A stretch of 64,000 nucleotides of DNA from a bacterium (GCA_963663405.2 CAXXSM010000100.1:1-64000); one strand, 5' to 3'; numbered from the stretch's first letter, positions 30,143 to 36,507 are shown. Program-made: numbers and translations. Notes: a model not told the origin generated them from the sequence alone.

Positions 30143-30320
30143 ACTCTTAGATCTTTTCCCAGTTTGAATATAATAAATCAATTCATCTCGGCAGGATCAG
30201 AAATTACCATTCAAACAAAATTCAAAAATCCCCGCCAGCTGCGCTAGCGCAGCAAAAAGACAAAAGCAAAGAGTATAAAGTGTCAAAGTGCAAAGGGTAA
30301 AAGCGATACAGCAAAAAGCG

Positions 30321-33300
30321 CTAATAAGTCCGGGAATACACAACTCGCAAACCTATGACGTCGTCCCTGAGATCTGGGGCCCTGTCGAACCGGTACGCCG
30401 ATCGGCAGTTCTCTGGATTGTAGAACCAGGAACCGCCCCGAAACACACGAGCTGCCCCACGGGGTGAATCAATCCAAGCGGAACCATCTTGAGGCGCCTC
30501 TTTGTAATTCTCATGCCAATCATCTTCACACCATTCCCGCACATTTCCGCTCATATCACAAAGCCCCCATAGATTTGGGGATTTTTCTACCTACTTGCTT
30601 CGTTTCCTCTTATCACATTATTGTCCGGATACCACGCATAATTCCATATTTCTCGATAATCATCATCCTCTCCCCAATAAAAGCGTGTCTTCGTTCCCGC
30701 CCGGCATGCGTATTCCCATTCCGCTTCGCTTGGAAGGCGAAATGTTCCTTGACCGAGTTGATTCAATTCAGTAATGAATCTTTGACAATCATCCCAGGAG
30801 ACAGATTCAACTGGATGATCGGGTTTCCCTTTAAATTCAGAAGGATTCTCACCCATCACAGCTTTCCATTGCGCCTGGGTGACGGGATATTTACCAAGAT
30901 AACAATCATAATCTATTTTGACTATATGCTGTGGACTTTCATCATCATATCGACCTTTCTCATTCTTTGGACTTCCCATCTTGAATCTACCCTTGGGTAT
31001 ATGAACAAATTCGATAGGAATCGATTCATTTGGCAAATTCGGTAATTGAATGATGATGGTGTCCACGTTCATGTATTTCGAATGCGTCTCGTTTCTTAAT
31101 TTGGATTTGAGGAACTTTCGTTTGCTCATTCCACGGTTCAATCAAGAGTGTTTCTTCCAGCCATCTTCGTTTCTCATCTGCAACTGAACATTCCGTAAGC
31201 AGACAATCCATTAACAATTCCGATGATTGCATGTATTGGATAATATTCGACAAATCTTCTGGAACTTGCAATGGATTCGAGAAATCAATATCAACGTGTG
31301 GATCAAACGATCGTTTTTCATTTTTTCTAAATAGGCTCTGGACAAATTCACGTATTTCATCACTTCCCGAAGTTGCGAATAAAGCAAGCATTTTATTGAC
31401 GGAATGAGGATTTGAATTGCTGGAACAAATACAACCTTCAAGATTCTGAAGAAGCCCAATCACTTCATCATTGGCAAGTTTTGAAATTCCCCGGCGCATA
31501 GAAATCAAAAATGAGTATGGATCGCTTAGTTTCTTCCGTTATCAATAAAAAAAACTTCACGCCATCGCTGTTCCCGCATATGCCGTTCAATAATGGAATC
31601 AAGATTCTGGGGATGTTCAACAATCCACAACGCGGTTAAATACTCATGGAAAGTGAGATGAGAGAAGGAATAGATATGCCTAGCGCGTTCAACCAACAAA
31701 CCATGATGGCTTTCAATGGAACAAAGCAAAGTTCGACTATCAGTCAGTGCAATTCCTTTTTCAAATTGAAAAGTTTGTTGAAGGTAATGGGAAATATTAT
31801 TTTCCAGAGATCTCCGTTTCATAAAAATAGTGTTCTTCATTAAAAACTTTGATACGCCAATTCTGTCAATAATGAAATTTTAATCTCTTCTGTGAACGAC
31901 TCTACAACATCAGGCCGTACGATCCCTCTTGTTAAATCCCATTCACGTATTAACAAATCGAATGTTTCTCGATATAAATCAGCGCGGCTGGATGGAAACC
32001 GTTCTTTTTCAGAATTAGAAAAGACCCAACATAATAATGTTAGAAGCAATGGATTTGTAGCTAACTCTAGAAGAGATCGATTCCTATTAATTTCATCATA
32101 ACACTTTTGTGCTTTTTGGGGATTCTTTTTAAACCAGTTTTGTATAAATGTTCTGATCTGATCTTCATTAAAGTCCGCCACTTCAACTAAAGTAAATTTT
32201 TCAAAGGTTCTGTTATAAGCGGCAAGACGACAGCTAATGATAAAACGGTTTTTGTTATATCGTTTTGTAAACAAACGAATGGTCTGCACGGCTTCAGCTA
32301 TTGTACTAAATGAAACCTCATCCAAACCATCCATAATAACTACACAATTCCCTTTTCTTAGATGCTGGCTGGTAAACTGCATTGCATCTTTAACATCTGC
32401 ATCTTCAAATTGTTTGGAAATAAATTCAAGTATTGTGTTTTTGCTATCAGACCATTCTTTTAAACTTATGAATATGGGTATCTTTTGTTTGTGAAGTTTT
32501 CCTTTAAGTATCTCAATGGTTATATATTTAAAAAAAGTAGTTTTCCCCGCTCCCGGTTTTCCTAATACCATCAAATGGTCATCGTTATCTTTTAATATTT
32601 CTATCCCTTCTACGGATTTATTTGAAGACGGATATTGACGCTGCTCGTTTGATCGAAACTGTTTCTCTAGTTCACTTAACTCAACGGATTGCTCTTTTGT
32701 GATCTTCTCAAGAATATGAACTTTAACATATATCGAATCCAAGGATATATCTTTATCCATTCCTAAAATCTGAATCGAACTATTGTTCTCATAAATCTTA
32801 TTTTTATAGGTTTTTAAGTCATGCTCAAAAACTTGCGTTTCTAAAACTGGTTCGTGAGTAAAAAAAATCTTTGAATCGATATTCGATGTATATAGTTTTA
32901 TCTCTCCAAGAGGTGGTATTTCTATTTGATGAGTCATAAAACGATATAAAGTAATGTACTCTCTTTGAATAGATACATTAAAATATCCATAAATCTGCAT
33001 GAATTCTGGAATATATAAATCCCATTCCGCATGAAAGACAATCGGAATGTATTTTTCATTTAATGATTTCTGTTTATATAATTTATAATTAATATTTTGT
33101 AATTCTCTAAAACTTCCACGTTTATCAGATTTAGAATATTGTTCTGAACATACTATTAATACAAAATCCGCTTTTTCGATTTGTTCAGACATCCAATCGA
33201 GCCATCCTTTAGGTGGGAACGGCTCATATTGGTCTATCCAACAATCTAAACCATCATATCGAAGTTGATTCGCAAATGACAAAACAAGTTCACTATGCTC

Positions 33301-33399
33301 ATTTGTTTCATGGCAATAGCTGATAAATACTCTTATTTTTTTGGGATAATTTTCCATTTTTTTGTTCCAAGACATTTTCCTAGAAATTCTCTTATTCAA
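30321..33399 (-). CDS. DGR target 1: SEFIR/TIR - NACHT NTPase - FGE-sulfatase (CLec fold), split by about 4 frameshifts
   Basis: VFISYCHE..HSELVLSFANQLR..G.DCWIDQY; Walker A GKPGAGKTT, Walker B MDGLDEV, NPLLLTL, FSHLTFHEYLTA; FGE motifs YPVTQAQW, RLPSEAEWEYACRAG, MSGNVREW, RGGSW. Joining the pieces is inference. Confidence 0.8.
30331..30455 (-). repeat. DGR variable repeat VR1
   Basis: Aligns ungapped to TR 33619-33743 with 16 mismatches, all at TR adenines (coding strand). Confidence 0.97.
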
Positions 33400-33618
33400 G
33401 TTTCATCACAAAATAGAGGGCCGCCTAAGCAGGACGTTCGGCCAACACCTACCAGCCCCGCCCAGGCCTTTCAATCTTTGTCCGGCAGCCTCGAACGGCC
33501 CTCATTGTTCGAACGGCTGCGCGATGCGGGAATATACCTATGGACTCCTCTTAGTACGCTCAAGGCATCCGTAAATGACTTGACTCTGACCGTGAGAATA
33601 CCATTCTCACAAGGAGCG

Positions 33619-34813: not shown

Positions 34814-35154
34814 GCTTTCGCCTGCTGCTTGATCCAGCCTCCCAACATAGATCCCACTTCATCTAAAATTTCAGAGATATACTTGTATCGGCGGAGATCA
34901 ACAAATTTAAGATCTTTAGCCAATCTCGCCAAGAAACGGAATTTCTCCAAATCTAAATTCGCGCGTTTCAGTAGAGCAATTTTCGAGCGTGAATACGAAG
35001 CTTCCACCAAAAGATCCAAGATCTCCAACAATACATTTTCCATACGGGAGCCAATCGTATATCGCTTATTTTTGGGGAATTTTTCAATCAAAGGCATCAT
35101 CCAAAGAATGATGTCATACATTTTCTGCACGATAGCGGGGTGATTGCTTTTCAC
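34810..35154 (-). CDS. avd: DGR accessory variability determinant (four-helix bundle)
   Basis: GGAGG RBS plus [17 protein letters not shown]...[17 protein letters not shown] overlap with the RT start. Confidence 0.92.
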
Positions 35155-35270
35155 GTGAATCCTCCAATTTAAAAAATATTCGCGAGCTGCGCTAACGCGC
35201 AGCAAAAAGACAAAAGCAAAAAGTATAAAGAGTCAAAGTGCAAAGGGTAAAAGCGATACAGCAAAAAGCG

Positions 35271-36507
35271 CTAATAAGTCCGGGAATACACAACTCGCAA
35301 ACCTAAGTAGTTGACCCAGCTAACTGGGGACCTGAAGAACCGGAACGCCGATCGGCAGCAGTCTGGATTGTAGTACCAGGAACCGCCCCGAATCACACGA
35401 GCGCCTCTACGGGGTGAATCAATCCAAGCGGAACCATCTTGAGGCGCCCCTTCAAAATTCTCATGCCAATCATCCTCACACCATTCCAGCACATTCCCGC
35501 TCATATCATAAAGCCCCCATGAATTCGGTTTCTTTTTCCCCACAGGATGTGTTTTTTGAGAAGAATTTCCAGTAAACCATGCAAACTGATTTATTTCTTT
35601 GATACTCAGGATCATCTCCCCAATAGAACCGCGTGCTTGTACCTGCCCGGCAAGCGTATTCCCATTCCGCTTCGCTTGGAAGACGGAACGTTCCTTGACC
35701 GAGATCATTCAATTTTTTGATGAAATTTTGACAGTCATCCCATGATACGCATTCGACTGGGCGATTTGTGTTTCCCTTAAAATTAGCAGGATTCTTACCT
35801 AAAACCGCTCTCCATTGTTTTTGAGTTATTGGATATTTCCCTAAATAGATATCATGAGGAATAGTCACTTGATGCTGCGGACTTTCATATTCAGATCTAT
35901 CTTTTTCTTTTTCCGGACTTCCCATCATGAAGGAACCTGCAGGAATTTTGCACAATAATAGAGGAACAGATTTACCTGTTGAACTGGGGATTTTAAATTC
36001 GATCTCGGAAGATTCATCTATAACTGGTTCGATTGATTTTAAAGGCGGTTCTACTATTGATGTAGTTGTATCCCTTTCAGGAGGTCCTTCTTCATCCGGC
36101 TTGTTTGGTTTGGAAGGTGTTCCGATTAATGATTGAATGGACTTGATAAGGTTATCAAAGTCTGTATTAGGTGTCCCCTTTTTCCAGCCGGTAAGATCAA
36201 CCGTTTTAAGATCTCTGAATCCAAAAGGAGGACGTACTTTTTCAATGAATATTGGCCTTAAAATATTTTTATTTAGACCTTCTCTTGCCTCTTCTTTTAC
36301 CCACTTGGATTTAATAGACGATTCTGACCAAAGCACGATAACACAATGGGTATTGTCAAGTTCAGCGTCGATAAAATCATAGATATTTTCTGCTATCGGG
36401 ACTTCTCGATCCCAAAAAACAGACCACCCCCGCGATTGCAATTCTTCAGCGATAACCTTCGCAATTGCAATATCGTCACTTTTATAGCTAATAAAAATAT
36501 CACTCAT
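35271..36507 (-). CDS. DGR target 2: TIR - linker - FGE-sulfatase (CLec fold), one frameshift near 35600
   Basis: MSDIFISYKSDD...VFWD...VIVLWSESSIKSKWVKEEA TIR; Pro-rich linker; FGE motifs through RGGSW...GLRVV. Confidence 0.9.
35281..35402 (-). repeat. DGR variable repeat VR2
   Basis: Aligns ungapped to TR with 19 mismatches, all at TR adenines. Confidence 0.97.

Follow-up and report, generated by a model that had tools for sequence, protein, structure and literature searches.

The 64,000 nucleotides of bacterial DNA analysed here (GCA_963663405.2 CAXXSM010000100.1:1-64000; the window, whose coordinates are used throughout) contain on their minus strand what is almost certainly a diversity-generating retroelement (DGR) with two targets. 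Open reading frame (ORF) calls and a Pfam scan, the latter run on the frame pieces as assembled, gave the minus-strand order of a TIR-C-type lectin (CLec) gene carrying variable repeat 2 (VR2), an accessory variability determinant (bAvd), a DGR reverse transcriptase (RT), the template repeat (TR) and a SEFIR/TIR-NACHT-CLec gene carrying VR1. The TIR-CLec gene (target 2; 36507..35271) matches TIR_2 with an E-value of 3.7e-21 and FGE-sulfatase at 3e-24 and 2.8e-23. Its TIR_2 domain (36148..36498; residues 4-120) includes E73 within the motif WVKEEA, and the final 41 codons of its CLec domain make up the 123 nt of VR2 (35281..35403). A conserved, non-coding 3' flank follows (35186..35280), with a hairpin at its end (35186-35203). 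The bAvd gene (35205..34810; Pfam bAvd 1.5e-21, residues 25-127) probably has its true start at an internal Met near 35121, and its stop overlaps the start of the RT gene (34813..33658; RVT_1 1.6e-14). The RT carries the motifs IGNLTSQ and YVDD; a DGR-type RT is recognised by RVT_1 together with IGxxxSQ and YxDD motifs.

The TR (33748..33619; 130 nt) lies downstream of the RT, whose last ~30 codons overlap it, and is in register with both VRs. The SEFIR/TIR-NACHT-NCH2-CLec gene (target 1; 33399..30321) was delineated from Pfam matches on the pieces, with frames taken from homologues. It encodes an N-terminal SEFIR/TIR-like (STIR) effector domain (32980..33333), a NACHT NTPase domain (32125..32574; residues 276-425) and a CLec domain, the final 43 codons of which form the 130-nt VR1 (30331..30460); the conserved non-coding 3' flank (30238..30330) again has a hairpin at its end (30238-30253). 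This gene order and domain content agree with the original prediction, which had been made from the sequence alone. The end points that it gave also proved meaningful, with translation of the TIR gene starting at 36507 and 30237 lying just beyond the VR1-flank hairpin.

Comparison of the repeats yielded the signature of adenine-specific transfer from a single template. Between VR1 and the TR there are 20 mismatches, every one of them at one of the 41 TR adenines and none at the 89 other positions. For VR2, the 20 mismatches are likewise all among 37 TR adenines, with none at the other 86 positions. Were mismatches random, the chance of all 20 falling on adenines would be ~1e-10 for each VR. 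A comparison of the two VRs gives 22 differences, 21 of which are at TR adenines, and each VR was therefore written separately. In the VR frame the TR contains 10 AAC codons and one AAT codon, and 31 of the 39 in-frame TR adenines are at codon position 1 or 2. The template permits ~1e18 possible protein variants. In both targets the FGE-sulfatase match extends as far as position 254 of the 255 in the profile.

The 3' flanks of the two VRs are identical at 82 of 84 nt, and a GC hairpin lies ~80 nt beyond each VR. In the VR2 flank this hairpin (GCTGCGC/GCGCAGC) appears in the DNA fold, with a z-score of only -1.65. The VR1-flank hairpin has a z-score of -0.15 and the folds of both flanks are no better than those of shuffled sequences, a point against the reading of the locus preferred below; because of this, the VR1-flank hairpin is judged from its conservation between the two copies. 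No further VRs were found in a whole-genome scan with the 3' 45 nt of the TR (adenines free, at most four mismatches), which matched only the TR, VR1 and VR2. Nor did the 8.4 Mb metagenome-assembled genome (MAG) contain a second DGR RT or Avd besides those of the locus. One candidate for such an RT, a protein of 452 aa on another contig (G000:C77:10311-11669; L002 1126-2484), was rejected since its combination of RVT_1 and GIIM identifies it as a group II intron reverse transcriptase/maturase.

Target 1 combines modules of an NLR-like protein with the diversified domain. Its Pfam matches are TIR_2 (9.5e-17), SEFIR (2.7e-13, which passes the cut-off), NACHT (3.3e-16) and FGE-sulfatase (1.5e-25 and 8e-15), together with a weak NCH2 match (2.4e-5; 24.8 bits, below the Pfam cut-off of 27 bits). 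Once the seven frame breaks described below are read through, SEFIR/TIR, NACHT, NCH2 and FGE follow one another in order, and the translation contains a Walker A motif (GKPGAGKTT) and a Walker B motif (IMDGLDEV). Among solved structures, the N-terminal domain is closest to the bacterial SEFIR domain 5y8e/5y8f (E ~5e-10), with the Act1 SEFIR at 3.4e-4. As TIR_2 scores slightly above SEFIR in Pfam, the best name for it is a STIR domain of the SEFIR type. The nearest database relatives of the NACHT region are NACHT+NCH2 proteins (42% identical). A word-sharing search, which is a weak one, found no full-length TIR-NACHT-FGE relative, i.e., only three of 85 longer NACHT relatives carried FGE and none of those three had TIR or SEFIR. 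Elsewhere in the genome, an intact paralogous NACHT+NCH2 protein of 742 codons (G000:C88:42183-44408; 40% identical) has neither the TIR N-terminus nor the CLec C-terminus.

In target 2, the TIR domain matches the NAD(+) hydrolase AbTIR and its relatives among solved structures. The residue E73 is conserved without exception across an alignment of TIR-CLec proteins (45/45), and its counterpart in AbTIR (8g83) is the Glu of WTNYEL, which we take to be the catalytic one. An intact homologue, P0087 (410 aa), is 76% identical to target 2, and the protein database contains many TIR_2 + FGE fusions of ~385-410 aa, with archaeal MAGs among their sources. Within the 45-member alignment, the positions equivalent to the VR are the variable ones. 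The top solved match of the family profile is the DGR variable protein TvpA (2y3c; 1.3e-51). The original prediction was supported in part: a single template with two CLec-type targets is supported by the TR/VR match and the domains, the VR differences are confined to adenines (20/20 in each VR), and the Glu of WVKEEA is conserved and aligned with that of AbTIR. TIR_2, SEFIR, NACHT and FGE-sulfatase, the profiles that it had named for a search, were all matched on the frame pieces. The SEFIR/TIR-NACHT description of target 1 was upheld by Pfam and refined in that the N-terminal domain is closest to bacterial SEFIR.

As assembled, the locus contains nine frame breaks, one in the TIR-CLec gene, one in the RT gene and seven in the NACHT gene. 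The TIR-CLec gene is represented by two overlapping ORFs (36507..35506 and 35708..35271); omission of one base near 35598-35602 gives a frame of 411 aa, and homologue P0087 bridges the break as ...EYKEI.... The RT is likewise split into two ORFs (34813..34502 and 34638..33658) by an extra base in the run 34545-34548, without which a 384-aa frame is open, and both RT halves share one frame in 78 of 78 related loci. Five ORFs are listed for the NACHT gene, with extra bases in the runs 31842-46, 31823-27, 31547-54, 31473-74, 31063-64, 30603-05 and 30582-86. Without these seven bases it encodes 1023 aa with no internal stop, along a frame path (3>1>2>3>1>2>3>1) established against database homologues and the paralogue on contig C88. 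Every one of the nine omissions is needed for the open frames of 1023, 384 and 411 aa and, since omitting one base at each of the nine sites opens all frames, each break corresponds to one extra base. Eight of the nine are in homopolymers of 8, 5, 5, 5, 4, 3, 2 and 2 bases; the ninth, near 35598-35602, is in a run of 3 or possibly in no run. Single extra bases are the only type of lesion at the locus, where neither a nonsense substitution nor a deletion is present.

We consider it fairly probable that all nine breaks are consensus errors of a low-depth assembly, and the element is therefore probably intact in the organism. The explanation to be weighed against this is a recently inactivated relic, in which slippage would truly have added the extra bases, the RT would be dead along with both targets and the TR/VR pattern would be the fossil of the last homing. 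This we regard as possible but doubtful. The uniformity of the lesions argues for assembly error, given that a homologous NACHT-CLec gene in a related genome (G012) has been eroded by mixed lesions, namely a repeat expansion of 10 nt, the loss of a block of ~120 residues and a short deletion that shifts the frame. The complete lack of TR/VR differences at the 175 non-adenine positions also counts for the artefact and against a relic. The G012 gene itself (L096 8484-10860; G012:C79) shows a pentanucleotide repeat expansion and lies between a flagellar hook gene and hsp20/lon; a DGR-like RT is located ~8 kb away on the same contig.

Contigs from two sequencing runs, X1 and X2, bear directly on the breaks. 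The X2 contigs over the locus have a depth of ~2 and are letter-identical to the window. Of the 16 ends of the eight longest ones printed, eight fall at break sites, in each case stopping one base before the run is complete. These ends (30585, 30604, 31063|31064, which abut, 31473, 31548, 31826 and 34547) represent seven sites, whereas the contigs span unbroken 12 other runs of at least five bases and 47 runs of at least four. The zones to which stop codons confine the eight sites cover 618 of 6271 nt in all, so that by chance ~1.6 ends would fall there, against the eight seen. The simplest reading is that the X2 reads disagree at exactly these runs, so that the words spanning them fall under the count threshold. 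One further X2 contig end is one base short of a run of four at 32695-32698, where the frame of the window is open; if the reads disagree there too, the window has the correct length at that site.

The X1 contig, which comes from another study, differs from the window at 129 of 1764 aligned bases (~93% identical) and lacks base 31063, and the frame is therefore restored there. In the inferred frames, 16 of the 25 changed codons printed for window and X1 are synonymous (98 further differences were not printed), and these 16 include six of the eight codon changes in the part of the NACHT gene downstream of four breaks. The assembly, in 170 contigs with an N50 of 72 kb, 82% completeness and an X2 word depth of ~2-4, would fit a low-depth long-read assembly. 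A general assembly fault was rejected as the cause: the reading frames of rpoB and rpoC are uninterrupted, a single frame suffices to align 13 of 14 long proteins of relatives to the genome and, among the other FGE paralogues, 31 of 38 are single-frame, one is in two frames and six have no C-terminal partner match. With the rest of the genome clean, the cluster of breaks is local, and it may extend into the adjoining integrase gene, itself split into three pieces. Among the remaining FGE paralogues, halves in different frames occur only at G000:C36:91959-92827.

Several points weigh against an intact element and in favour of the relic. The window letters do carry the nine breaks, one of them in the RT. 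The breaks cluster in a low-GC island (0.36-0.42, compared with 0.47 for the genome) beside the broken integrase gene and are confined to accessory genes (the DGR locus and the integrase), with FGE paralogues, housekeeping genes and other neighbours intact, and the same pattern would be expected from decay of the island. As the G012 homologue is truly broken, such genes do decay in this group, and Doré et al. (2024; PMC10907252) report degenerate DGR loci with pseudogenised parts. It may also be that the window was derived from the X2 sample. The X2 contigs never show the shorter allele but merely stop, so that the significance of the contig ends is indirect; the ends were counted from the eight longest printed pieces (16 of 251 pieces were printed), sites 30603-05, 31473-74 and 31547-54 were fixed partly after the ends had been seen, and 34814-35281 and 35750-36217, among other gaps, had no X2 cover. 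Moreover, no variation in VR1 or VR2 was seen, though X1 and X2 are contigs, which drop variants, so that neither VR variation nor allele frequencies at the break sites are visible in them. The original prediction had held that a real RT frameshift, together with invariant VRs, would mark an inactive relic; a frameshift is indeed present in the letters of the window, and the evidence above suggests that the base responsible was added in error during assembly.

The host can be placed on one gene, rpoB, the nearest named relatives of which (82-83% identical) are a Candidatus Omnitrophota bacterium and a Candidatus Hinthialibacter sp., suggesting that it belongs to Candidatus (Ca.) Hinthialibacterota (OLB16). 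This phylum was separated from the Omnitrophota, and its members are described as flagellated specialists of sulfated polysaccharides (PMC9324843). The ~40 FGE-sulfatase paralogues present here and the flagellar hook gene in the related genome fit the lifestyle so described. These ~40 paralogues lie outside the DGR, nearly all are single-frame and none matches the TR. At least eight tandem FGE-domain segments were also observed in a further genome (L098; G010:C8:1036000-1055999), where ORFs of 1638, 2388 and 2110 aa align to the FGE paralogues of the present one.

We compared the locus with its nearest relatives in genomes and metagenome contigs. The nearest RTs are at most 48% identical and come from MAGs mostly labelled Chloroflexota/Anaerolineae, with some cyanobacteria and others. 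Among the 80 nearest RT loci, a NACHT gene adjoins the RT in 40 and a CLec ORF in 48. Of 49 complete CLec ORFs beside related RTs, 32 had NACHT, three a caspase domain and one TIR_2; this rarity of TIR effectors beside the nearest RT relatives (1/49) is a point against the reading of the locus preferred below. DGR-like RTs (37-45% identical; E 1e-43 or better) were present in seven of 34 other genomes of the phylum sample. No orthologous locus was found among 40 related genomes, in 34 of which the locus DNA matched FGE parts only, at up to ~87% over short stretches.

The element very probably belongs to a published kind of DGR, that of the STAND-CLec type. Doré et al. (2024, PNAS; PMC10907252) describe chromosomal DGRs (clade 5D; Thiohalocapsa PB-PSB1 DGR 3 and 6) that commonly have two targets, each with a single C-terminal CLec/FGE domain, with central NACHT or nSTAND NTPases, some TIR effectors and some degenerate loci. 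They propose antigen sensing and, by the account of that paper, CLec-STAND proteins lack experimental characterisation. The present locus shares these features but has the NTPase in one target only, the other being a TIR domain joined directly to CLec, and its NLR-like target bears a SEFIR-type STIR domain. It also differs in its host, Ca. Hinthialibacterota as judged from rpoB, which is not known as multicellular. FGE-type domains and DGRs have also been linked to NTP-dependent conflict systems (Kaur et al., 2020; PMC7159879). TIR-like N-termini occur in multidomain variable proteins of cyanobacterial DGRs, where they were read as regulatory, and the word 'NACHT' is absent from the main text of that study (Vallota-Eastman et al., 2020; PMC7517822). 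The suggestion that the paired architecture might be undescribed thus stands in part: the kind of DGR with two CLec targets and STAND or TIR modules was already published (PMC10907252), while the pairing of a STAND-less TIR-CLec protein with a SEFIR-NACHT-CLec protein on one template is uncommon and the host lineage is new. The novelty is accordingly narrow. No paper on a DGR in OLB16/Hinthialibacterota was found in the literature searches, and the terms 'retroelement' and 'DGR' are absent from the main text of the paper describing the phylum (PMC9324843); published supplementary figures of single loci may contain the same pairing.

Other known systems resemble parts of the locus. With the DGR of Bordetella phage BPP-1 (Mtd, Avd, TR, bRT) it shares Avd and RT, adenine-specific flow from TR to VR, a VR in a C-terminal CLec domain and an AAC-rich TR. 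Unlike that element, it is cellular, has the order avd-RT-TR and serves two targets with cytoplasmic signalling domains; its hairpin lies ~80 nt beyond the VR, whereas in BPP-1 the hairpin adjoins the VR. Treponema denticola TvpA, the best solved match to the TIR-CLec profile, is an FGE-type CLec variable protein of a DGR, a lipoprotein of the cell surface that has neither TIR nor NTPase modules. The antiviral STAND proteins bNACHT and Avs have the same effector-NTPase-sensor layout and Walker A and B motifs as target 1, but in place of their TPR-like repeats the sensor here is a DGR-diversified CLec domain. The effector domains match bacterial TIR NADases (AbTIR 8g83, Thoeris ThsB), with the TIR Glu conserved, and SEFIR proteins (5y8e/5y8f); unlike in those proteins, they are joined here to a hypervariable sensor of the lectin fold.

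From the BPP-1 paradigm and the protein families, a mechanism can be proposed. bAvd and the RT would copy the TR transcript into cDNA, misreading adenines, and the cDNA would replace the final ~125 nt of both target genes, which have a near-identical CLec C-terminus and 3' flank. With this end and flank shared and only one template, both sensors would be re-drawn independently from the same ~1e18-variant template. Target 1 would act as a tripartite STAND receptor with a SEFIR/TIR effector, a NACHT switch and a CLec sensor, in which ligand binding would set off an NTP-dependent oligomerisation that gathers the STIR domains. In target 2, the same type of sensor would sit directly on a TIR domain with a conserved Glu, and clustering by ligand would cause NAD+ cleavage or signal production. 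We hold with moderate confidence that the locus is a genuine chromosomal DGR, one of those whose targets are NLR-like conflict proteins, and that it works in this way.

An immune function is suggested by the families to which the domains belong, and we give an even chance to the more specific proposal of defence by NAD+ depletion or abortive infection. TIR domains with the conserved Glu, SEFIR and NACHT are modules of known bacterial abortive-infection systems. An intact element might instead diversify receptors that are not anti-phage but mediate kin or self/non-self recognition or sense regulatory signals. Such a role would agree with the regulatory reading of the cyanobacterial variable proteins, TIR-like ones included (PMC7517822), with the uncharacterised state of CLec-STAND proteins (PMC10907252) and with the fact that no phage-defence neighbour was identified in the locus. 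Since the effector modules are those of abortive infection and the published reading of the class is antigen sensing (PMC10907252), we consider this alternative unlikely. A very speculative reading, to which we attach little weight, is that the two receptors, with one template and nearly the same sensor scaffold, are not duplicates but a matched pair. They would act as sensor and helper by way of heterotypic STIR (TIR-SEFIR) contacts, in the manner of paired NLRs in plants or of IL-17R/Act1.

Upstream of the locus in window coordinates lies a plus-strand phage-like block (17877-29840) encoding a helix-turn-helix protein, portal and capsid proteins and a fragment of a minor tail protein (matching profile positions 90-201 only). 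The GC content of the block is 0.51 and that of the DGR island 0.36-0.42. At its end the block has a tyrosine integrase gene on the minus strand (28668..29840; Arm-DNA-bind_3 3.4e-7, Phage_integrase 1.6e-18), and a plus-strand tRNA-like gene (29965..30032) separates the integrase from the DGR. The latter is just above the Rfam threshold (31.3 bits; gathering score 29) and was not called by ARAGORN; unrelated contigs pile up in numbers over it in both runs. A search for att-like island ends found no direct repeat of at least 18 nt. Although portal, capsid, minor-tail and integrase genes at 20-29.8 kb adjoin the locus, a phage DGR for tropism switching was rejected as extremely unlikely, given that the targets carry cytoplasmic TIR/SEFIR/NACHT modules and not tail-fibre parts, that the tRNA-like gene intervenes, that GC content falls from 0.51 to 0.36-0.42 at the boundary of the block and that the nearest RTs are chromosomal and mostly beside NACHT genes. 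Further away, the region 9577-16342 has low GC content (0.35-0.39), short ORFs and methyltransferase-like and DUF3800 proteins, and may be another accessory island.

For genome interpretation, the practical lesson is that +1 breaks clustered in a MAG of low depth can give a live element the look of a relic. For the biology of the family, the locus extends this kind of DGR to Ca. Hinthialibacterota. If the matched pair were real, one hypermutating template would feed a two-tier immune circuit in a candidate-phylum bacterium not known as multicellular. If the element is intact, it offers a natural comparison of the same type of sensor wired through a NACHT switch and directly to TIR, and could help to test whether the CLec-STAND 'antigen sensors' signal through NAD+ chemistry.

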